64,000 bases of DNA, taken from NCBI RefSeq assembly GCF_033153115.1, contig NW_026889779.1, positions 1,860,001-1,924,000 on the forward strand, in the 5' to 3' direction. Origin of the DNA: Saccostrea echinata (lineage: Eukaryota). Position numbers and translations under genes: made by a program. Below the pieces are notes generated by a model. That model worked only from the letters and a program-made list of their open reading frames with translations. It ran no database searches and was not told where the DNA came from. Positions 17,401-64,000 of this stretch are shown here, piece after piece (the stretch's first letter is position 1; each line of letters begins with the position of its first letter).

Positions 17401-20400
17401 ATCAAAATAGTAACTGGCTAGTAAGTAATGATTGTCACTGAAATAGTTAGATAACCTGAGATTTATCAAAATATAGTTATTTACTGGATGCATTTGTTTT
17501 AAATCATTTCCATAAACTTTCTTTGTTAAATAAATATAAATTGCAATTATTTTATAGATACTACTGGTAATGAGAAACTGAATGCATACAAACTTAAATA
17601 AGACCATATGAAATGTACAAACATAAAAAGGTGAAATTTTAAACACATGGAATTTAATCATTATGCTTACAGCAAAACTCTTTCTTTGAACAGCAATTAA
17701 TAGAGCAAATTTATGAATATAGCAAAGTATTTTAGGTATTTACATCACCAGATCTTAACATTTTATACATAATGGAGTCAATTCCTATTTATTTAGTACT
17801 GAATACACATTGTTGATTGCCCCTTCTATGGTATATTTTAGGAAATAATTTTACATTCAATGACTATCAGCTCCATACTCTATATATAAGAGATCTCCAT
17901 ACATTTATTCAAATGTTTCTGAAAAGGGGGTTGTTATGGACGCCTATGTAACACATCCGAGGTTATTTTTCCACTTGTTTTTTGATTTCGACACCATTTT
18001 TTGTATAAAACAGTTTCTAATATACAAACCAAACCTGAACAGAAATCTGGTAAAAAGGGACCAAAATTTTTTACTGCATGACCTTGAAGTTATACCTAGT
18101 TCTAAAATTTTTAAACTTTGCATGTTGGCTTTAAAACTTTTGCACCAGAAGAAACAGGAGTTTCATATTTTTTCAAGTGTATTACCTGTGAACATGATTT
18201 TCCTGAGTGTACTATGATTTTTAACCTTAATCATGAAGTTTGACCTGGATTTTAAAATTTTTAACTTAAGCTGTAATTTTCGCACTAGAAGAGAAAGACG
18301 TTTCACATATTTTCATATGTTCATTACCTTGCAGTGACAAGATGATGATTTTTGACCCCATGTCCTATAAGTACACCTCCAAATTTGACTTTCAAAAACT
18401 TGAACATTAGCCATAACTTTTGCACCAAAACATATACTGTACTGGGGGGGGGGGGGGGGGGTACTTAACCGAAAGCAGGGAACCACATTCTTGTTTCATT
18501 CACCTCTGTTTGTTCCTCAGTGTAGCCTATACTGGACTGGTATATATTACATGCTGTATTATATTTACCTCTGTTTGTTCCTCAGTGTATAAGCCTATAC
18601 TGAAGTAGTTTATTTTACATGCTATATTTACCTGTGTTTGTTCCTCAGTGTAGCCTATACTGGACTGTATGTAGTCCAGTTCTGCGTCTGTAATGGTGGA
18701 ATGTTTGGCTGGACTCTCAGCAATCAAAAAGCACCAGCATACAAACCACAGTATACCAAGGCTACCTACAATTTACACCAGAAAAAAGTCTGTGGGATCA
18801 AAATCTGGGATTTTTAATGATGTGGAAAATAACATCCAATGTGATAGATAAAAACAGAAAATGACAGTTATATTCTAATAAAGTGTGTCCAGTATACATG
18901 TACCTGTCTATGCATATACAGGTATGTAATAATACTTTTTTTTATTCATAATCCTAACAGTAATGATCAAGTCTACAGACTAAATAATTGACAGAATCAA
19001 CAACATGAACACACATTTATGTACAAGGCCCCATAATATGCATTTATCAATATGTTTTCAACCTTGGCATTGAGTACTTGTAGGGTGGCCTCAGAATCTA
19101 CTGGCTGGGTCTTTGTATAGTGAAAATGATATCTGTGTTTTGTGCTGTGTGAAAATGTAATGAAAATATGTTGATTTTGACCTCTGATTGTCTCAAAATC
19201 TTTCCACATTTCTTCTCTTACCAATGTTTCCCCATGTATGAGCCCATGGGCCACATTGCTCACCTATGCTTTTGGCTATGAAAAAGCATAATTCAGTTTG
19301 GTATTGAAAAGTTTAAATATATAAGTGGTTCCAACCTTCCCCTAATTGGGGGGGGGGGGGGGGAGGGAGGGAGGAGGGGGAAGCACATGATTTAAACAAA
19401 CTTGAATCTTCACTAACTGAGGATTCTACCATAATTCTTAAATTAATAATGGTCTTAAAAGATTTTTAAAGATTTTTTTCCCTTTAAGTTTGATTTCTGT
19501 TGTGGCCCACCACTTCCCTGGGTTTCGTGATTTCAACAAACTTGAATCTACACTGCCTGACAATGCTTCCTTACAAATATGACCAATCATGGCTTTGCTG
19601 TTCTTGAGAAGAAGTTTTTCTAAGATTTAAAAAGATTTTTCCTATGTATTTTTTATATCTAGTACACTACCTGAAGACACTTCTATAAATATGACTAAAT
19701 ATTGGTTTGCTGTTCTTGAGGAGGAGATTCTTAAAGATGTTTCCAATGTATTTCTATCTAAAACTTTGATTGTCGAATGTGGCTCTGCCCTGCCCCCAGG
19801 CCTGGGTCATGATTTGAACAATCTTAAATCTACAACACTGCCTGACAATGCTTCCATACAAACAAGAGCAATCATGGATTTGCTGTTCTTGAGGATAAGA
19901 TTTTCTAAGATGTTTCCTATGTATTTCTATGCTAAACTTTGATTGTCCATTGTGGCCCTGCCCTACCCCAGGAGGTCATGATTTGAACAAACTTGAATCT
20001 AAACAGCCTGACAATTCTTCCGTACAAATATGAGCAATCATGGATTTGCTGTTCTTGAGGAGAAGATTTTTAAGGATGTTTCCTATGTATTCCAAACTAT
20101 GTCAAACTTTGATCGTCCACTCTGGCCCCGCCCTAACCCCCCGGGGTCATGATTTGAACAAACTTGAATCTACACTGCCTGAGGATGTTTCCACACAAAT
20201 ATGAGCAATCATGGATTTGCTGTTCTTCAGGAGAAGATTTTCAAAGATGTTTCCTATGTTAAACTTTGATCATCCATTGTGGCCCTGCCCTACCCCTGGG
20301 GGTCATGAATTTAATCCCCAAGGAATATTTCTGCTTTTACAGTATTTGTAATGAAAACAGTCACAAATGTAAATAATTATATAATTAATTAGGTATCATT

Positions 20401-50540: not shown

Positions 50541-51475
50541 AAGTCTTAAAACTTGCTTTCGATGCCGATGGAATTCTCGCGGCGCCGCCCTACACTTCAC
50601 AATCATTGAGAATGGAAATGAGATACACTTATATATTTAAACATTAGTTTTATTAGAGGATCGTTACCGATACACATAGACAGGAAAACTGACAGAAAAC
50701 AAGTAGACTTAGAACAAAGAAAGAACTTTAGGATGCTACAGTTACTACCAGATATTACAGTAATATCAACAGCATACTTATTATAGGAAAAAAATACTAA
50801 AAGAAATAATGATAGATAAACGATATCTCTCAGCTTTTCATAGAATAGTAGCAAACCAAGAAACATCAGGTCTCTATCATACAACTTAAATTGATAAATT
50901 AACAAAGCTGGTTTATCAAATTGAATAAAATTTTAATCAAATATGGCTTACCAACAGCTCTAGAAACACTAAACTACATCAAGAACAAACAAAAACAAAG
51001 CAACACAAGCGATAGCATTTTACAAGCACCAGAGCTTCGTAGGCAGAAGGATAAAACGTACGCTCAACTAGGACCTTAGGTCACCGGCTCAGTTCACAAC
51101 TATCAAACCTGTTTACTCCGCGACAAAATGTAGTGCACTGCAACCTAAAGTGAAAATAGAATAAATCGCACTACTGTGAAGCTTTTACAGTGTAAAACAA
51201 CAAACAGAAAATCTATTTTTGTCAAAGGAATAATCATCTGATATGAGGAAAGATACAGAGGGAGCAACATTGACTGCAATATATTGTAAAATATGTTATA
51301 CAGCAATGGATTACGTAGGGTGACCTGTGGTCTCCCTAATGATATTATTATTCCATGTAAGGCAACAGTATCTATTTAAGACAGTACCTAACCTCTGATC
51401 TCCTTATTAATATATCAGGGTAGGCGACCTCCTGTCTCCACATTCGCACATCCAACAGGCAGGGGGAGGAGGTAC

Positions 51476-52036
51476 TGTAGTGTTTTTTTATTTCATAATA
51501 TACGATTTTCTATTTGAGTAGACTTAAGTAGTTAACTTTTATACTTAGAGTAAATTTTTGTTTATCGCTAGCTATAGGTAGCCTAATGGCGCCCTAATAA
51601 CATTGGGTGTCTTAGAGGCCTAATCATGTTAGGTGGTAAGAGGCCCTATAACTTGGTGCCCGACACCTAATGGTGGCCTAATCATGTTAGGTAGTAGGAG
51701 GCCCTATTATTTGGGTGCCTAATAGAAGCCTAATGGATGCCTAATAGAAGCCTAACTATATTGGGCTGTCGACAGGTATATATACAGGGTGAGAGAATAT
51801 GTGCGGCAGGCACTTCTCCCCTATTTCTTGATTTACTATGATGTTATGTTGATGTAAATTTCCATAATACAATTCGTTCTACAAAAGCAAAGTGTTGTTC
51901 TTATTGATCTATAAAGATCTCAAAATCCTACGCATGTGTTGCGAATAGCACAGGATCCACATAATTTTGTGACTTGTCTGGGGTTTAAGCAGATTTGGAT
52001 ATAATCACAAGCTACATTACCCTCAGTTGCGTTACA
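51476..52036 (+). repeat. 5' LTR (561 bp)
   Basis: tgtagtg...gcgttaca. TATA-like sequence at 51777. Confidence 0.97.
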
Positions 52037-52038
52037 AT

Positions 52039-52056
52039 TGGTGGCAGCGGTGGGAT
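52039..52056 (+). promoter_or_regulatory. Primer-binding site, tRNA-Leu
   Basis: TGGTGGCAGCGGTGGGAT is the reverse complement of ATCCCACCGCTGCCACCA, the 3' end of eukaryotic tRNA-Leu(AAG/UAG). Confidence 0.88.
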
Positions 52057-52106
52057 CCAGTGAAATTATTCAAGTGCTATATTGGATTAAGCCTACACTG
52101 AGCAGG

Positions 52107-53552
52107 ATGGAAACACCAATGATAAGGAGAAGGATAACGCCGAGAAAGGTAGAACAAGATTTTGAAAGTCATTTGAATGACTCTGGAATTGGGAACTCAC
52201 CAGGGTTTGAGGGAGATGCACTACCCACAGGTCGAGTTGGGCCAGGCACACCTGATTTTCAGGACTGCAGGCCCACAAGTAGCTCGCAGGGTTGCTCTCC
52301 TGTAAAATCCGAGTTTCCTATGAGTATCTATAGAGAGAGGAGTGAGTCTAGACCGAGCTTAAAGAGAATCCTTTTCATTTGGTTTCTTTTTGCTTTGGTT
52401 GTGTGTTGTTTAATGTACATAGCCTGGACCTATTTTCCATTTAAAGAGATTGTTCAGCGATCTTATGAACACGCAACAATCTCTCTCGCATCCGCCGTGA
52501 GTGTAATACTGTTACTGATCATAACAGTATCATGGAAAAATGGGGGAACAAGCTCTGAAGCTGATGACCAGGTAAAAGAAATTTATCAGGGATCGAACTT
52601 TGGCTATTTTGGTGGCGAGGCATCTAACAGCCCAAAAGGTACCTATCAGGAACCTAATGTGGTTGGGCATCTGAGGCCTAATGCCCCTAATGTGGGTCAA
52701 GGTTCTTCTCTTGGTATAGGGCATAACTTAGAACTGCCGCTTGCTGATGCAACTCCTGTTAGCGGTCCAGTTAAAAGGACCCAGGATGAGATGGGCTCAC
52801 GGGTAAATGAATATCCAGTTAGGAGGACTTTTTCAGGAACAAACAATGATGTTTGGAATGAATTTTATCAATATTTTGAAAATATTGCTGAGCTGAACTC
52901 ATGGGGACCAGAGAAGTCTCGTCGAGTGCTGTTGAGTACACTGCGGGGCCAAGCAGAGAGTTACGCCTATGGGATACCCCTTGCAACTCAAAGGGACTAT
53001 GAACAGCTTAAACAAAAGATGGAGCAGCGATTTGGCCATTCGGCTATGAAGGAACGCTATATAGCTGATGCTAAACTAAGAAAGCGACAATCTGGAGAGT
53101 CCTTGAGGGATTTTGGACAAGCGATTGAAGACCTTTACAGGAGGGCTTATCCAGAAAACCCTGACATAGTTGAAGAAAATGCCATTAAGTCATTTTTGGA
53201 CAAATGTGGACAGTCTGAAGATTTTCGTCTGGCAGTGAAGAGGACCAGGCCTAAGACACTGCAGGAAGCTGTGCTAAATGCTATGCAAGAGGAATGCTTG
53301 CGAGTAGGAGAAAGAGAATTGTCGAAGGACCACAAAGTCGTCCACCGACAGATATATGAAATTGGAACTGAGACGGGGGAGAGTAATTTTAAGGTAGCTA
53401 CCGGTACCGCCAAGCCCCCAAGCGCGGGTGAAGGATTCCCCGGTACCCAAGAAAATCTGAGAAACCCCGAAACTTGTAGATATGGAAGGCTAGGAGGAAG
53501 GGGACGCCCTTATTATCCTAAGCACCGAAATGTTCAAACAGGGATACAATAG
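52107..53552 (+). CDS. gag: Gag with two N-terminal transmembrane helices and a capsid domain
   Basis: First ATG at 52107. CA-like FSG...W..F...FE..A..N.W...L...L.G.A and MHR-like RQSGESLRDF. The natural end is probably 53616 (QDLN*), after a frameshift. Confidence 0.88.
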   Translation: METPMIRRRITPRKVEQDFESHLNDSGIGNSPGFEGDALPTGRVGPGTPDFQDCRPTSSSQGCSPVKSEFPMSIYRERSESRPSLKRILFIWFLFALVVCCLMYIAWTYFPFKEIVQRSYEHATISLASAVSVILLLIITVSWKNGGTSSEADDQVKEIYQGSNFGYFGGEASNSPKGTYQEPNVVGHLRPNAPNVGQGSSLGIGHNLELPLADATPVSGPVKRTQDEMGSRVNEYPVRRTFSGTNNDVWNEFYQYFENIAELNSWGPEKSRRVLLSTLRGQAESYAYGIPLATQRDYEQLKQKMEQRFGHSAMKERYIADAKLRKRQSGESLRDFGQAIEDLYRRAYPENPDIVEENAIKSFLDKCGQSEDFRLAVKRTRPKTLQEAVLNAMQEECLRVGERELSKDHKVVHRQIYEIGTETGESNFKVATGTAKPPSAGEGFPGTQENLRNPETCRYGRLGGRGRPYYPKHRNVQTGIQ

Positions 53553-53606
53553 GTACACAATTCCTCGCGAACCTGCGAATTGTGTTGATAAAGAGAAAAG
53601 GCAAGA

Positions 53607-56600
53607 TTTAAACTAAATGCGACTGGTGCGGAAGGCCGGGTATCAGTCGGATTTAAGAGGCCTCAAGGAAATGAAGATTACAAGAAGGAGAGAAAGAAAA
53701 TATATTGGAAAAAGAGAAGAAAAAGTAAGGTAAATAGCAACCAGGATCATGACATCAAAGATGACGTCATTGAGAAGAACGGAAGTCGGGAGAAGACAGA
53801 AATGAAAACACAGCATACCGTAGTTGAAGGTATGCGCAATATGAGGGTTAAAGGAATGCTTGAAGGGACATCTATAGAGTGGAAAATAGATACTGGAGCA
53901 AAGCGGACGTTTGTGTCTAAAAAAAACTTTTGACAGCATCTTAGAGAAACCCACTCTAAGTCCTGTTAGTGCCACGTACGTTGTAGCGGATGGACGAACT
54001 TTGGATTGTGCTGGAGAGGCTACCATGGTACTAATCTTTGGTGACGATGCTTTTGAGCATCCAGTTATTGTAGGAGGTGTGAAGCATAACCTCCTTGGTG
54101 AAGATTTTATTGAAAAGTTTCGTTGTGGATGGGATCACGATGAAAAGAGTTTTATTATAAAAGGGGTCAAAGTACATTTGAGGGGCTCTGATGGAGTAGG
54201 GCCTGGAAGAGTGATAGCACTAGAGTCGACAGTTGTCCCAGCTGGTGGTGAAGCCCTGGTTCCTTCTGGACTCACTGGGCGTAATAAAACGAATTCAGGG
54301 GAATACCTCGGAGTTCTTACGCCTGAGAGACCTTTCATGGAACGGTATGGGTTAGCTATAGCAAGGACATTGGTTGATTCTAAAAATGCGGTAATCTACG
54401 CTAGGATATTTAACCCAAAAGCAGAGGATGTGAAGATCTACCGACATACGCACATAGCGTTATTTACCCCAATTTATAAAGTTGGACCAGTGTTTAAATT
54501 ACAAACAAGTAATAGCAATATAGAGCAAGTTGAAGTGAAGGATAGTTCGACTATTGACATCCCGGAATATCTACAGAATGTGTACAAAAAGGGATGCGAG
54601 CACCTTGATGAAACGCAAGCAAAAGTATTCAAAGAATTCATCATAAGTAAGCAAAATTGTTTTGCAAGACCAGGAGAAGTAGGAAGAACAAATCTTGGGT
54701 ACCATGAGATAAAACTTCAGGATGAAAAACCTATTCGGGAACCTCCAAGAAGAATTCCATTGCACAAGAGACAAGCTTTAGAGGAGGAAATTAAGAAATT
54801 AGAAAAACAGAACCTTATAGAAAAAAGTACAAGTCCCTGGTCATCTCAAATCGTTATGGTGCAGAAAAAGGACAAATCATGGAGGATGTGTGTTGACTAT
54901 AGGAAGTTGAATGAACAAACCATAAAGGATGCATATCCTTTGACAAGAATTAATGATAATTTAGATTCTCTCAATGGTGCAGAATGGTTTTCCTCCCTAG
55001 TTTCAGATATGGCGTACCACCAGGTACCTTTAGCAGAAGGTGACAAGGAAAAAAACTGCTTTTGCCACGCCTAGGGATGGACTGTACCAGTATATCACCA
55101 TGCCTTTCGGCCTGTGCAATGCAGCAGGTACATTTCAAAGAATTATAGAAAAAGCTCTTACCAATTTGCAGTGGTATGCTGCAGTACTGTATCTGGATGA
55201 TATTGTAGTATTTGGGAAGACGTTTGAAGAGCATTTTAAGAATTTAAACGAGGTTATGGACCGATTAGCAAAGGCTGGCCTGAAGCTCAAGCCGAAGAAA
55301 TGCCATTTCCTGAAGAAGAAAATAAGTTTCTTGGGACATGTGGTTTCAAAAGAAGGTATACAGACAGATCCAGAGAAGACAAAGGCAATAGATCAAATTC
55401 GAATACCGTCTTCTGTTAAAGAAGTGCGAAGTTTCCTAGGATTAGCCTGCTATTATCGAAAGTTTGTAAAAGATTACTCAAAGATTGCAAAGCCTCTATA
55501 CGACCTCACTAAGCAAGATAAGAAATATCTCTGGACAGATGATTGCCAAAGAGCGTTTGAAGAACTTAAGTTAAGGTTGACATCAGCACCTATCTTGGCA
55601 TATCCAAATATGGAAGGAGACGAGTTTATACTTGATACTGATGCTAGTGCCTTTGCTATTGGAGCAGTTTTGTCTCAAAAGCAAGATGGTAAGGAGAGGG
55701 TTATAGCCTATGGAAGCAGGACACTTAATAAGCCAGAAAGGAATTATTGTGTTACAAGAAGAGAAATGTTGGCTGTAGTATACTTTACAAGGTATTTCAA
55801 GCATTATCTACTAGGGAAAAGGTTTACACTTAGGACTGATCATGGTTCTCTCACATGGCTGAAAAATTTCAAAGAACCTGATGGCCAAATACACAGGTGG
55901 ATTCAGCAACTTAGTCAGTTTCACATGAAGATAGTGCATAGGCCAGGAAGCAGACATGGAAATGCAGATGCAATGTCAAGGTTAACAGAATTACCAAAAG
56001 AAGTATGTAAGCAATGCAAAATGCCGAGTAACTTCATGTATCAAGGACCTACAGAAGTAGACGTTCCATATATGAAAGAGGGACAGCAAGATGATAGAGT
56101 GCAAGCTGTGAGTAATGAAGAAGTTTTAGAGGAGGATTCAGAATCTGAAAGTCCTAACTTATTCCCAAATAATGGAAGTAATGGTGGACTAGATGATTCA
56201 AATGTGGCTGATGGAATGCCTATTTTGAGGAGAGGTAGAAAGGTAAACAGACCCGCACCTGCGAAACAAAGACTCAGACCCAAGCTCGATCTTAACTACA
56301 CTACACTGAGAAAGGAGCAAGAGGATGATACAGTAATTGGAAAAATACTTAAGCTGAAAGAGAGCAATGCTGAGAAACCAGAAAAGGATAAAATTATAGC
56401 AGAGAGTCCAGAATTTAAATTTTGGTTGTCAAGGTGGGAGATATTGGAGGTGAGAGATGGGGTTCTTTGTATCCTATGGGAAGATAGTTCAAAAAGATGG
56501 CGGATCTGTGCCCCAAAATCTATTTTGCATGTTGTAATGTGGCACCTACACGACTCCAAGCTATCAGGACATCAAGGAATTAAGAAAACTGTGGAAAAAG

Positions 56601-57919
56601 CAAAGATTTGTCCATTTTACTGGTGGGGTATTGTACGAGATATAAGAGAGTATGTGCAGAAATGCGAGATATGTGAGGAACGGAAAGACCCCCCAAACAA
56701 AAAGCGTCATTTTCTACAGAAGTATGTTGTAGGCGGCCCATTTGAGAGAATTGCCACGGACCTCGCAGGACCATTCCCAACTACTGAGAGGGGGAATCGC
56801 TACATATTAGTAATAGGAGATTATTTTACCAAATTGACGGAAGCGTATCCATTAGAAAATATAACAGCTGAGACTGTAGCTGATGTTTTGTTTCGTGCAT
56901 GGATAAAAAGATATGGTTGTCCAGCTGAGGTGCACTCCGACCAAGGGAGACAGTATGAAAGTGCTTTATTTCTTGAGTTGTGTCGAATGTTACAGGTTAA
57001 TAAGACGAGGACAACTCCTCTACATCCAAGGTCGGATGGCATGATAGAGAGGATGAATAGGACCATACAAGACATGCTGTCAAAGTACATAAAGAGTCAT
57101 CAAAAAGACTGGGATCTACATTTGGATTATATCACCTTGGCATATAATTCAACGCCTCATGAGAGTACTAGTGTATCGCCTCATAAAATGGTATTTGGAA
57201 GAGAAATTAAACTACCACTTGACTTTATGGCGAATAATGTAGTTGAAGAGGAAACGTTTGAGACAGATTTTGTGCGGAATTTGAGAGATAACTTGTGCCA
57301 GGCTCACGAATTTGCACGCAAGTCCTTGCAGAAATCGTCAGAAAGGCAGAAACAACAGTATGATTTGAAAGTTAGGGAAAAGAGCTATGAGATAGGTCAA
57401 TTAGTGTGGAGGAACCAGAAAATAGTTACACCAGGAAAAAAACAGAAAATATGCAGGAATTGGAATGGCCCCTGGGTAATAACAAAGAAGATTAGTGAAG
57501 TACTCTACAAAATCCAACATAAGGAGGACTTACCTGGAGTTGTCGTCCACGGGGATAATTTAAAAGAATACAAAGGGGAAAAGAAAATTAATTGGTTTAA
57601 TGGAGGATTTCAGGAAGAAAGTTTGCCTACAGAACTACCAAATTTAGAGGCTTTTAAAGATGCTGACCATTTAGAAAGAAATTGTGAAATAAAATCCAGA
57701 AATAAAGACAAATTCGCAGACGCCGAACCGGGACCTAACGCAGACACCGAATTAGAATCGGAGTCGGACGCCGAAATGAGATCGGGTACAGAGTCTGCAA
57801 TTATTGTAAACAGAAATGCCACGAGGTTTGGAAGAAGTGTAAGAAAGCCCGAAAAATTTAAAGATTATGTTAGTAATGTACAGCTAAAGAATGGATGTTC
57901 GGAAATCGGTATTATGTAA
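53607..57919 (+). CDS. pol: Pol (PR, dUTPase-like insert, RT, RNase H, IN), split by two +1 frameshifts
   Basis: PR IDTGA (~53890). RT WRMCVDYRKLN, MPFGLCNA, YLDD. RH LDTDAS, EMLAVV, TDH. IN H-H-C-C, D(LAGP), D(QGR), ERMNRT. Frameshifts in A-runs at ~53920 and ~55050. Confidence 0.95.
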
Positions 57920-58721
57920 ATATTGTGGAAAGTTATTTGCTAGCGTGAAAAATCTAAAACGACATGAAAATCAAAGACACAAGAACATTGTCAAAGTGAG
58001 GAAGTGCCCCTTAGATAACTGTGGAATTTATACCTTTAGATTAGAATACTTAGTGTCCCACCTGAAGAGATTTCACGGAAAACAGCACAATGATGCTAAG
58101 GAAATCGCAAAATTATCGATAATAGAACTTAAAGAGAGAGAGGAAATTAAGGAAATAAATCTGAAGATTCGTGCCCGTCAAAAACAAAGGATGATGGATA
58201 GAGAGAATAACAACACATCATTGGTATTAGGGGACGAAGAAGACATTTTGGATATTGACGTGCCAAAAGAGGAACAAGAGACAATAGATTTTGATATACT
58301 GGAGGAAGACTGGGTGAATACTCTCTTAGAGGGAATTTCTGGAGAAAAAGAGGAATTAGATGATCATGTGTCAGAAATTTCGAATGAAAGTAAAGAAATC
58401 GTGCAACCATTAGAAGAGGACGTGCCAAAAGACAACGAAGAAATAGAGTGTGATCCTGATGAGAATGTTAAACAAGGAGAGCCTTCTTCAGCAACAGATG
58501 TATCGGAAGTCGTAGAGACCATCACTATCAATCTAGTAACTACGAGAAGAATAACACCCAATGGTATTTCCATCAGGCGGAATCATCAAATATCTACTTC
58601 TAGATTTATCCGACCGGAACAGATTGACTGGATGAATTTCTTTTCCTATCTGCAAAATGAAATACTTGAGTACGCTAAGGAAGAACACGAGAGGGATTGT
58701 GACGCGGAAGACTTAGACTAA
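57891..58721 (+). CDS. ORF3: two C2H2 zinc fingers plus an acidic domain (276 aa)
   Basis: CKYC-x12-HENQRH and CPLDNC-x12-HLKRFH, then a D/E-rich C-terminal half. Intact, overlaps the pol stop by 29 nt, and lies inside the element. Confidence 0.85.
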   Translation: MDVRKSVLCKYCGKLFASVKNLKRHENQRHKNIVKVRKCPLDNCGIYTFRLEYLVSHLKRFHGKQHNDAKEIAKLSIIELKEREEIKEINLKIRARQKQRMMDRENNNTSLVLGDEEDILDIDVPKEEQETIDFDILEEDWVNTLLEGISGEKEELDDHVSEISNESKEIVQPLEEDVPKDNEEIECDPDENVKQGEPSSATDVSEVVETITINLVTTRRITPNGISIRRNHQISTSRFIRPEQIDWMNFFSYLQNEILEYAKEEHERDCDAEDLD

Positions 58722-58985
58722 AAAAAAACTCATTGTGTTCAAGCTAACTCAGGGATCAAGTGACTTTGAAATATATTTTGACATTTGCAAAATTATTAGG
58801 GTGCTAACGACATGACTGTATTTTACCATATTATCCATCGTTTTAATATGTTTTTTTTTTTTAAATTGTTCTAGTCAGTTATTTGTACATTGTTTTTTTT
58901 TATATTGATCAAGTAAGTTTGTATACGTTTTTTTTTTTAATTGTCTTTGTTTTTTTTTAATGGACAGTGGAAGTCCAATCTTCTT

Positions 58986-58994
58986 AAGGAGGGA
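58986..58994 (+). promoter_or_regulatory. Polypurine tract
   Basis: aaggaggga, 4 nt before the 3' LTR. Confidence 0.7.
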
Positions 58995-58998
58995 CCAT

Positions 58999-59557
58999 TG
59001 TAGTGTTTTTTTATTTCATAATATACGATTTTCTATTTGAGTACACTTAAGTAGTTAACTTTTATACTTAGAGTAAATTTTTGTTTATCGCTAGCTATAG
59101 GTAGCCTAATGGCGCCCTAATAACATTGGGTGTCTTAGAGGCCTAATCATGTTAGGTGGTAAGAGGCCCTATAACTTGGTGCCCGACACCTAATGGTGGC
59201 CTAATCATGTTAGGTAGTAGGAGGCCCTATTATTTGGGTGCCTAATAGAAGCCTAATGGATGCCTAATAGAAGCCTAACTATATTGGGCTGTCGACAGGT
59301 ATATATACAGGGTGAGAGAATGTGCGGCAGGCACTTCTCCCCTATTTCTTGATTTACTATGATGTTATGTTGATGTAAATTTCCATAATACAATTCGTTC
59401 TACAAAAGCAAAGTGTTGTTCTTATTGATCTATAAAGATCTCAAAATCCTACGCATGTGTTGCGAATAGCACAGGATCCACATAATTTTGTGACTTGTCT
59501 GGGGTTTAAGCAGATTTGGATATAATCACAAGCTACATTACCCTCAGTTGCGTTACA
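58999..59557 (+). repeat. 3' LTR (559 bp)
   Basis: Differs from the 5' LTR by 1 substitution and one 2-nt indel, by eye. Confidence 0.97.
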
Positions 59558-60254
59558 GTACATTATAGGTCTTGCCCCCCACCCCGCTCGGACTCTTCAC
59601 TGATCCTTAAAGATAATGGAATAATTATTTGGTAATAAATCATATTAGGTGTCCTCTGGTCTCCCTTTTGAGGTCATACCTCAATAGGCGACCTTATCAG
59701 TTTAACACTCTAGTAAACCTCTGGTTAATATTAATCTTACAGAGTAGATGTATGCCCAGTCTTGCAAGGATGGAGGCTGAAGTTCTCCTCCCCTTTCCCT
59801 GGAATTTACTCTTATCAAATTCATAAACGAATCAAAACTACTAGTATATTTTCCAAAATAATAAACTTAAAAAACATGGATTCATTGTCAATTGCTTGTG
59901 GGATACATATACTGTATATGAAGGAAAAGTTGTCTAATGTCATCCCCATCCAATTACATAAATTTAGAAAATTAATTTGGAGAAATTGTGAAATTGTTGG
60001 CTTGCAAAAAAAACAGGGTCTCAATTTTTGTTTGGAGTGAATTTGAAAAATAATTCTTCACATGGAACATTTTTTAAATTGTCTTCTTATAACTTCAAAA
60101 GTTTTCCTAATAATGAACAATATAAGATTACCTCTGGTCTACTGTTTCATATACCACTTCGTCTGACCTCTGATATCCTTATTGATGTACAATATAAGAC
60201 AAACTCATGTTTCCATATTCTTTATGTGGGGAGCAGAGGAAACATAAAGTTTAT

Positions 60255-62326
60255 ATGAATAGGGAGACCATAGGTCCCCTTATATTGTACATCATTGGGA
60301 GGATCAAAGATCACATTGTATTGTACATCAAAAGAAAGACAAGAGGTCCCCTTATATCCTACATCTATAGGGAGACCAGAGGTCCCCTTACATCCTACAT
60401 CTATAGGGAGACCAGAGGACACCTTATATTGTACATAATTAGGGGGACCAGAGGTCACCTTATATCCAATATTAATAGGGAGACCAGAGGTCCCCTCATA
60501 TCCTACATCTTTAGGGAGACCAGAGGACACCTTGTATTGTACATCAATAGGGAACCCAGGGATCATTTGTACATCAACAGGGAGACCAAAGGTCCCCTTA
60601 TATCCTACATCAGTAGGGAGACCAGAGGACACTTTATATATTACATCAATAGGGAGACCAGAGGTCCCCTATATCGTACACCAACAGGGAGACCAGAGGT
60701 CCCCTTATATCCTACATCCATAGGGAGACCAGAGGACACCTTATATTGTACATCAAAAGGGAGACCAGAGATTTCTTATATTGTACACCAATAGGGAGAC
60801 CAAAGATCCCCTTATACCCTACATCAGTAGGGAGACCAAAGGATACCTTATATTTAACATCAATAGGGAGACCAGAGGTCACCTTATATTGTACATTAGT
60901 AGAGAGACCAGAAGTCACATTATATTGTACATGAATACGGAAACCTGGGGTCCCCTTATTTTATTAATCATTGGGGTGACCATATTTCATATAAAAGTGT
61001 TTTTAAATACGGAGACCAGATCGCGTCTTATGTTGTACATTATTCAAGAGACCAGAGATCACATAAAGTTGTGTATGAATATGAAGACCAGAGGACACCC
61101 TATATTGTTCATCATATGCAGACCACTGGTCACATAAGGCTGTGTATAATATGAATACGGAGACCAGAGGTCCCCTAATATTGTACATCAATAGGGAGAC
61201 TAGAGGTAACATATATTGTATTGTACATAAATACGGAGACCAGAGGACACCTTATATTGTAAAGAATTAGGGAGACCAGAGGTAACTTATTTTGTACATC
61301 GATAGGGAGACCAGAGGACACCTTATATTGTACATAATAAGGGGGACCAGAGGTCACCTTATATTGTACATCAATAGGGAGACAAGAGGTCACTTACTTT
61401 GTACATCAATAGGGAGACTAGAGGTAACATATATTGTATTGTACATAAATACGGAGACCAGAGGACACCTTATATTGTAAAGAATTAGGGAGACCAGAAG
61501 TAACTTATTTTGTACATCGATAGGGAGACCAGAGGACACCTTATATTGTACATAATAAGGGGGACCAGAGGTCATCTTATATTGTACATCAATAGGGAGA
61601 CCAGAGGACACTGTATATTGTACATAATTAGGGAGACTAGAGGTAACTTATTTTGTACATCAATAGGGAGAGCAAGGTCACCTTATATTGTAGATCAATA
61701 GGAACACCAAAGGTCCCCTTATATCCTACATCATTAGGGAGACCAGAGATCCCCTTATATCCTACATCTCTAGGGAGACCAGAGGACACCTTATATTGTA
61801 CATCATTAGGGAGACCAGAGGTCACCATATATCCTGCATCAGTAGGGAGACCAGAAGACACCTTATATTGTACATCAATAGGGAAACCAGAGATCACTTA
61901 TATTGTACATCAATAGGGAGACCAAAGGTCCCCTTATATCCTACATCAGTAGGGAGACCAGAGGACACTTATATTGTACATCAGTAGGGAAACCAGAAGA
62001 CACCTTATATTTGACATCAATAGGGAGACCAGAGGTCACCTTATATTGTACATTAGTAGGGAGACCACAGGTCCCCTTATATCCTACATCAGTAGGGAGA
62101 CCAGAAGACACCTTATATTGTACATCAATAGGGAAACCAGAGATCACTTATATTGTACAGCAATAGGGAGACCAAAGGTCCCCTTATATCATCATTAGTA
62201 GGGAGACCAGAGGACACCTTATATTGTACATCAATATGGAAACCAGAGGACATCTTCTATTTTACATCAATAGGGAGACCAGAAGTCACCTTATATTGTA
62301 CATTAGTAGGGAGAACAGAAGTCACA
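60255..62326. repeat. ~36-bp minisatellite array
   Basis: Unit agggagaccagaggacaccttatattgtacatcaat, repeated about 55 times with variants. Confidence 0.95.
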
Positions 62327-63709: not shown

Positions 63710-64000
63710 TTATATTGTACATGAATACGGAGATCTGGGGTCCCCTTATTTTGTTAATCGTTGGGGAGACCATATTTTACATAAAAGTGTTAATGAATAC
63801 GGAGACCAGAGGTCATCTTATGGTGTATATTATTCAGAGACCAGAGGTCACATAAAGTTGTGTATGAATATGAAGACCAGAGAACATCTTATATTGTTCA
63901 TCATTTGCAGACCATTGATCACATAAGGCTGTGTTTAATATGAATATGGAGACCAGAGGTCCCCATATGGTGTACTTCATTAGGGTGACCAGAGGTCCCC
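63710..64000. repeat. Continuation of the 36-bp minisatellite
   Basis: Same units, paralogous to 60920-61200. Confidence 0.9.

Follow-up and report, generated by a model that had tools for sequence, protein, structure and literature searches.

Retroviral Gag proteins bind membranes through their matrix domain. Ty3/Gypsy capsids are regarded as shells that are soluble in the cytosol, and the dividing step between retrotransposons and retroviruses is considered to be membrane wrapping. Membrane-targeted Gag proteins are already known and include IAP Gag, the glyco-Gag of MLV, and Gagr. IAP Gag is described as being targeted to the ER by SRP and as budding there (PMC3945221, PMC3576619, 10.64898/2025.12.19.695612). 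In MLV glyco-Gag (gPr80), translation is reported to start at an in-frame CUG upstream, giving a Gag form with a membrane-spanning N-terminal extension (PMC5120145), and Drosophila Gagr, the product of a domesticated gag, has reportedly acquired a transmembrane domain (PMC7231272). The Drosophila MDG1-group elements (412, Stalker2) encode sORF2 as a protein of its own, which is described as crossing the membrane once, having its ectodomain at the N-terminus, and often being myristoylated (PMC11952523). Among bivalve elements, Steamer elements are described as being 4.5-4.9 kb long, with LTRs of 153-219 bp and a single gag-pol ORF (PMC8905726, PMC11046912).

The 64-kb window (the whole stretch of DNA analysed here) holds an env-less Ty3/Gypsy element whose Gag carries a pair of hydrophobic helices, predicted to form a membrane hairpin, ahead of the capsid domain. 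With IAP Gag, the hairpin Gag shares env-less replication and a hydrophobic N-terminal targeting region instead of a myristoylated matrix, ER targeting of the hairpin Gag being predicted. IAP, however, is a rodent endogenous retrovirus, whereas the window's element is Ty3/Gypsy by its RT, and IAP Gag has one N-terminal targeting segment, whereas the hairpin Gag has an internal two-helix hairpin behind a tail of 60-170 aa. Glyco-Gag is similar in having a membrane-spanning N-terminal extension, and its CUG start resembles that of a likely extension in six sister families. Yet glyco-Gag is a minor single-pass type II form with its capsid part outside the cell, while the hairpin Gag is seemingly the only Gag and its capsid is predicted to be cytosolic. 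The likeness to sORF2 lies in membrane-protein coding 5' of the capsid in an env-less Ty3/Gypsy element and in the small upstream ORF of the sister families. Unlike sORF2, the hairpin comprises two helices fused to the capsid, its N-terminus is predicted to be cytosolic, and M-G starts occur in 2 of 46 representatives. A fusogen architecture of the sORF2/FAST type was therefore rejected for the hairpin, given this fusion and the rarity of M-G starts, fusogens of that type often beginning with MGxxxS/T. Gagr, a host gene in one fly subgroup, differs in that no mobile lineage uses it as its capsid precursor.

The original prediction had also drawn a link to the horizontal spread of bivalve elements such as Steamer, and this link was not supported. 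Steamer (C-clade) is likewise an env-less bivalve Ty3/Gypsy element with a tRNA-Leu primer site, but the window's element is 8.1 kb long, with LTRs of 561 bp, separate gag, pol, and ORF3, and another PBS sequence. On architecture, membership in the Steamer family is not supported, as size, LTR length, ORF layout, and PBS all mismatch the published descriptions.

Two mollusc surveys classify elements by RT, and their accessible text does not mention such a Gag (PMC6238403, PMC10294476); in the accessible text of plant and rotifer element papers, the membrane segments belong to extra ORFs and not to Gag. No hairpin-bearing Gag of a mobile Ty3/Gypsy lineage was found in the full-text literature, Repbase and most subscription journals lying outside the scope of this search. 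So far, there appears to be no description of a whole mobile lineage in which the standard capsid precursor has a two-pass anchor. If the capsid precursor is indeed a two-pass membrane protein, it would represent an independent invention of matrix function in a diverse and still active lineage. With such a lineage, one could test directly at which site env-less particles assemble and by which route the core reaches the chromosomes, and also whether wrapping alone permits cell-to-cell movement, in animals known for horizontal element transfer. The hairpin is moreover a sequence marker for a clade whose Gag has been left undescribed by surveys that use RT only.

The element and the hydrophobic pair in its Gag

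The element (Table 1) belongs to Ty3/Gypsy (Metaviridae), as seen from its LTRs, PBS, polypurine tract, target-site duplication, pol order, RT, and capsid fold. According to Pfam, the domains of pol follow the Ty3/Gypsy order PR-RT-RNase H-IN, and the top PDB match of the RT is the Ty3 RT (E 1.5e-59). The LTRs are 99.5% identical over the 561 columns compared, which together with the GTAC duplication indicates a recent insertion. The 17-base PBS pattern has 21 matches in the genome, and four of the eight loci scanned are tRNA-Leu (AAG or TAG) genes. The open frame around gag spans 52005-53552, with a stop 25 codons earlier than in the sister copy L030, and pol is spread over three frames, both of which point to a damaged or misassembled copy. 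The TTTAAAC heptamer is, by its motif type, presumably the -1 frameshift site for Gag-Pol. Short repeats of the GCCTAAT type lie within both LTRs (51580-51760 and 59100-59280) and may represent a factor-binding array.

Table 1. Coordinates of the element, of its Gag regions, and of the CTG in sister families (window positions unless a locus is named)
Feature	Position	Strand	Remarks
Ty3/Gypsy LTR element, full length	51476-59557	+	8.1 kb, without env
Target-site duplication GTAC	left 51472-51475, right 59558-59561	.	
5' LTR	51476-52036	+	TG...CA
Primer-binding site (PBS)	52039-52056	+	complement of tRNA-Leu (AAG/TAG) 3' end
gag ORF	52107-53552	+	481 aa from ATG 52107
Disordered N-terminal tail, aa 1-85	52107-52361	+	S/T-P sites; predicted cytosolic
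KR (aa 86-87) and hydrophobic helix 1, aa 86-112	52362-52442	+	helix 1 is ILFIWFLFALVVCCLMYIAWTYFPF, aa 88-112, 52368-52442
Connector KEIVQRSYEH, aa 113-122	52443-52472	+	predicted amphipathic helix; conserved E121; predicted luminal/extracellular
Hydrophobic helix 2, aa 123-143	52473-52535	+	ATISLASAVSVILLLIITVSW
Disordered linker, aa 144-235	52536-52811	+	includes unconserved M229 (ATG 52791)
Capsid domain, aa 236-405	52812-53321	+	PNMA2/Arc/Ty3 fold
pol (PR, RT, RNase H, integrase)	53592-57919	+	breaks near 53920 and 55050
TTTAAAC heptamer	53607-53613	+	common to L030, L043, L031, L035, L037
ORF3, env position	57888-58721	+	C2H2 zinc-finger-like start, acidic stretch
Polypurine tract	58986-58994	+	
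3' LTR	58999-59557	+	
Conserved CTG in strong start context	L055:1510, L060:1513, L062:1510, L065:1513, L070:1501, L072 near 1510	element strand	

ORF3 occupies the position of env, but Pfam gave no env family match for it, zinc-finger families being its only matches, and judged from its sequence it looks like a DNA-binding regulator encoded by the element. L030, L031, L032, L033, L034, L036, L037, and L043 also have an ORF3, which combines C2H2-type zinc fingers with an acidic stretch and a conserved C-terminal region and is maintained in divergent families. Assignment to the env-carrying errantiviruses, as these are described in PMC13524379, was rejected because an env ORF with an F or gB-type ectodomain and a TM anchor is absent, ORF3 being acidic and of the zinc-finger type.

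The original prediction placed two hydrophobic helices, preceded by a basic KR, before the capsid domain and in the same frame, and all of this was recovered. Kyte-Doolittle hydropathy (19-residue window) peaks at 2.83 in helix 1 and 2.49 in helix 2, with the rest of Gag at or below 1.3, and helix 1 contains the conserved W92 and the conserved W/Y-x-Y-F-P end. When the 235 pre-capsid residues were shuffled 10,000 times, no shuffle yielded two segments of at least 2.0 and 160 yielded one. Among 540 six-frame blocks of the window, a stop-free hydrophobic pair was found in a single block, presumably the one with Gag. Chance hydrophobicity as the source of the hairpin is ruled out by the hydropathy peaks and these controls.

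AlphaFold2, run on a 52-row alignment, gave a helix at residues 85-109, a turn at the conserved F-P, and a single long helix at 114-146 (pLDDT about 77-85); disordered stretches flank the helix pair, and the capsid is modelled at 240-408 with pLDDT above 90. The structure check proposed at the outset thus returned the helix pair and the capsid, but with one long helix in place of the loop and the second helix. The predicted loop of about 10 aa held up in the same partial manner: a 10-aa spacer is present, but according to the model it is not a coil and instead forms a short amphipathic helix that continues into helix 2. In a Foldseek search, the modelled capsid matched the PNMA2 capsid best (E 1.1e-4), followed by Arc and dArc.

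The term transmembrane is used here on the basis of hydropathy, the aromatic and charge pattern, and the AlphaFold2 model. At the level of sequence, Gag has the features of a two-pass integral membrane protein, i.e., helices of at least 19 aa, aromatic ends, and a positive-inside bias. Searches for a known domain in the hairpin gave none, with Pfam returning a below-cutoff FixQ match and scattered one-member membrane matches. An Atlas search gave no usable match for the hairpin of the homologue P0007 and only leads below 0.9 for the whole protein. We have high confidence in the hairpin as a genuine and conserved feature of the main Gag.

Distribution and conservation of the hairpin

A homologue search limited to proteins of 264-842 aa, a limit that favours fused hairpin-capsid forms, gave 126 homologues, of which 120 were listed. 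Among those listed, 87 have at least 150 aa before the capsid, with two hydrophobic segments in 76, three in 5, one in 5, and none in 1. After the capsid start, a hydrophobic segment is found in none of the 120. From a capsid-only search, which cannot favour the hairpin, the best 150 of 4,155 matches were used, and the pooled set for comparison by capsid identity comprised 248 proteins. At a capsid identity of at least 48% and with 150 aa upstream, two or three segments are present in 87 of 92 proteins and one in the other 5; below 48% identity, 12 of 19 have no segment, 2 have one, and 5 have two.

For a tree of capsid domains only (quick search, midpoint root), the 129 proteins whose coverage sufficed were reduced to 68. 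In this tree, a single change (SH-aLRT 98) splits 49 hairpin-side Gags with a segment from 19 without, and none of 500 shuffles gave as few changes. The 19 rows outside the hairpin clade agree with the initial statement that Gypsy Gags are normally soluble, as they lack such segments. The hairpin side consists of a near branch (n=41) and a distant branch (n=8) with 33-38% capsid identity. That the hairpin is a one-off accident of the window's copy is ruled out by the homologue counts together with this tree.

In the 52-row alignment, the recurring residues are W85 (46/52), W92 (49/52), F110 (34/52), P111 (43/52), E121 (39/52), and K/R141 (44/52), while the helix cores vary, but among hydrophobic residues. 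Against five sister-family copies from the same genome, which are not independent of each other, dN/dS is 0.16-0.31 for the hairpin and 0.43-0.64 for the linker, the hairpin being lower in all five comparisons. The N-terminal tail gives 0.34-0.42 in these comparisons, apart from one value of 0.19 that is based on only 22 codons. In comparisons with two close copies, the hairpin values are 0.38 and 0.47. These ratios indicate that the hairpin is under purifying selection.

Among the named homologues are Mytilus proteins, which make a bivalve host likely; the others come from an invertebrate metagenome and from clam-symbiont assemblies. Scans for related loci found two in metagenome contigs and none in prokaryote genomes or viral contigs. 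Capsid identity to the Mytilus proteins is 80-82%, which was rejected as evidence of horizontal transfer because dS is saturated between two families within one genome, at a dN of 0.07-0.09.

Topology, proposed mechanism, and alternatives

Charge and methionine counts were made on 46 representatives, 3 of 49 having no called pair; the pair of P0041 is probably mis-picked. In these representatives, the connector has 0.10 K+R per residue and a net charge of -0.13, compared with 0.17 and +0.98 for the 15 aa that precede helix 1 and 0.18 and +0.65 for the stretch that follows helix 2. The stretch after helix 2 in the window's own Gag is not basic (1 K and 3 D/E in 15 aa), and its connector has K and R, so the topology argument draws on the family and not on the single protein. 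The tail before helix 1 has a median length of 93 aa and contains 168 S/T-P sites versus 74 after shuffling, two of the window's sites being of the S/T-P-x-K type (aa 11 and 64); RRxL occurs 19 times versus 1.5 expected from shuffles, and RRxL..F is found in 18 of 44. We take these to be motifs of the proline-directed kinase and cyclin-docking types. S/T-P sites are also enriched in Gags without hairpin (60 versus 32), and N-glycosylation sequons are not enriched in the Gags of the relatives. The charge bias and the kinase-type motifs favour a topology in which both Gag ends are cytosolic, which sides with the proposal that a hairpin would leave N-terminus and capsid on the same, cytosolic face.

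In no Gag region are the ESCRT late domains PTAP, PPxY, and YPxL found in more than 1 of 44, and a myristoylation-type M-G start is present in only 2 of 46 representatives, so that an internal membrane fits better than budding at the plasma membrane. Palmitoylation of the CC pair, another suggestion of the original prediction, is unlikely because C100/C101 lie mid-helix and are unconserved, with Cys in 7/52 and 2/52 rows. The connector between the helices measures 10-16 aa. The linker has a median of 59 aa and a range of 27-323 aa in relatives, and measures 94 aa in the window's Gag; a conserved protease site before the capsid is not evident in the 52-row alignment.

SRP-type insertion is the default for helices of this kind, which, together with the lack of plasma-membrane budding motifs, favours assembly and budding at the ER or nuclear envelope. 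We propose, at about even chances, that the conserved hairpin anchors the env-less Gag in the ER/nuclear-envelope membrane and that the assembling capsid is wrapped by that membrane. SRP would recognise helix 1 as a signal anchor and in this way also carry the RNA of the element to the ER; helix 2 would return the chain to the cytosol, and the hairpin would fill the role of the retroviral matrix domain. The Ty3 shell is reported to be about 47 nm across, with the capsid N-terminus pointing outward (PMC6525542). Given this orientation and the short median linker, the tethered subunits could form a closed shell only if the membrane wrapped it, with budding directed out of the cytosol and into the perinuclear space or the lumen of the ER, as happens with IAP particles. 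A counterpoint is that linkers of 94 aa, as in the window's Gag, and of up to 323 aa, as in some relatives, would suffice for tethering without wrapping. The element's protease could then cleave the linker and release the core, and the tail motifs resembling cell-cycle kinase sites hint at a timing with nuclear-envelope breakdown.

The disordered, fast-evolving linker of 27-323 aa would also suit a hairpin that serves as a tether only, concentrating Gag and RNA at the ER or nuclear envelope until the linker is cut early and naked capsids are left beside the nucleus, and yeast Ty1 is described as nucleating its assembly sites via SRP and the ER without an envelope (PMC3945221). Retroelement proteases, however, normally act after assembly (PMC6525542 and established knowledge), which would leave the immature shell on its tether, and the short linkers of most relatives would hinder the closing of a free sphere; we regard this alternative as unlikely. 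Equally concerned with the fate of the particle is the reading in which the hairpin sends Gag to the plasma membrane or endosomes, wrapped particles exit, and the outer connector aids env-less entry. The conserved connector pattern (F-P turn, amphipathic helix, K/R-E) and the joint presence of many divergent families in one genome speak for it, as does the report that env-less Drosophila MDG1 elements move between cells via the small membrane protein sORF2 (PMC11952523). Against these points stand the rarity of late domains and of myristoylation-type starts given above and a two-helix layout, with its short connector, that differs from the single-pass N-out arrangement of sORF2/FAST; moreover, the accessible text on IAP states that secretion of its Gag alone was not seen (10.64898/2025.12.19.695612). 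This makes exit from the cell improbable in our view. More doubtful again is a bolder form in which Gag-only enveloped particles carry the outer helix as their sole element-coded surface part, which would drive entry into another cell or host and be tuned by the CUG-started third helix; if true, it would offer an infectivity route without env or a separate fusogen.

Wrapping at the ER or nuclear envelope presupposes that the capsid precursor includes the hairpin, and the start site bears on this point. The 68 nt from the PBS to ATG 52107 contain no earlier ATG, and ATG 52107 stands in a strong context (A at -3, G at +4). ATG 52791 (M229) is in a fair context, which would allow the capsid to come from a hairpin-free isoform (by a downstream start, a splice, or a break), leaving the membrane form as a minor accessory or separate small protein. 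M229 is, however, unconserved among relatives, a Met between helix 2 and capsid is absent in 15 of the 46 representatives, so that a downstream ATG fails as a general rule, and only 11 of 46 have a Met near the capsid start. Translation thus probably begins upstream of the helices, as originally assumed, and the isoform reading is very unlikely. It could also draw on a break just behind helix 2 that is common to three copies (L031, L034, and L036), but these look like non-autonomous offshoots because two of the three lack RT. One further hint is an RNA-run contig that joins 52056 to 52637 and omits the hairpin, with non-canonical CC..AA ends and 21 letters on its short side. Seven RNA runs matched, each with at most 0.07 of the query words, and the four examined consist of contigs only; two of them span the region. 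Since these contigs stem from relatives that are mostly 85-95% alike, they cannot show start, strand, or splicing.

Of 28 genomic copies with a capsid match, 25 have a stop-free hairpin, so the region is not disrupted in most copies, but hairpin and capsid start share one frame in only 15. Only 16 copies have an unbroken capsid (8 of them with the hairpin in frame), which makes the frame breaks look like general decay, and the break rate in the capsid is about the same as in the hairpin-to-capsid stretch. L031 and L036 carry an internal deletion that removes RT and RNase H and retains gag, part of integrase, ORF3, and both LTRs; on this structure they likely constitute a non-autonomous subfamily.

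Sister families and other repeats in the window

In six zinc-knuckle-type families of the same genome (L055, L060, L062, L065/L067, L070/L074, and L071/L072), the motif A-x-x-CTG-GAT lies in frame 18-30 codons before the first gag ATG. Downstream of the CTG lies a hydrophobic run of 19 aa, the twelfth of which is His. Within this extension, synonymous exceed non-synonymous differences in all six pairs, which come from four of the six families, and a similar segment is found in the database proteins P0047, P0065, P0067, P0073, and P0129. The extension is absent in L068, L073/L078, L028, and the window's element. A CUG-started extension thus likely adds a third membrane helix to Gag in these six families, judging from codon context and substitution pattern. 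A rival view takes CTG-GAT as a conserved RNA motif, for which the recurrence of TGGAT-like words in the leaders of the sister families speaks. A splice donor GT(A/G)AGT before gag in L055 and L060 was considered and ruled out, as it is absent in L067 and L071.

Between PBS and gag, the zinc-knuckle-type families also have an upstream ORF of 75-90 aa with two CxxC pairs (L033:797-1033), which is likewise seen in the leaders of L032, L057, L060, L062, L065, L068, L072, L073, and L078. It is zinc-ribbon-like, with weak Pfam matches, and is absent from the window's element. The gag endings fall into two types. In the window's branch (53322-53613; L030, L035), they are without a CCHC knuckle and have RG-rich tails and the terminal TTTAAAC heptamer. 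In the other branch (L032, L033, L028, L068, L072, L074), the CCHC is kept and a conserved R-Q-TAG end is present. Among the representatives, 26 of 46 have a CCHC.

Elsewhere in the window, tandem arrays lie at 10922-14209, 19706-20308, 5349-6670, and 4827-5116, with units of 166, 171, 156, and 146 bp, respectively, the 166 and 171 bp units being related to each other. A 36-bp minisatellite occupies 60258-62325 (about 58 copies) and 63779-63981; it has long open frames on both strands, and an inverted related sequence lies at 60098-60226.
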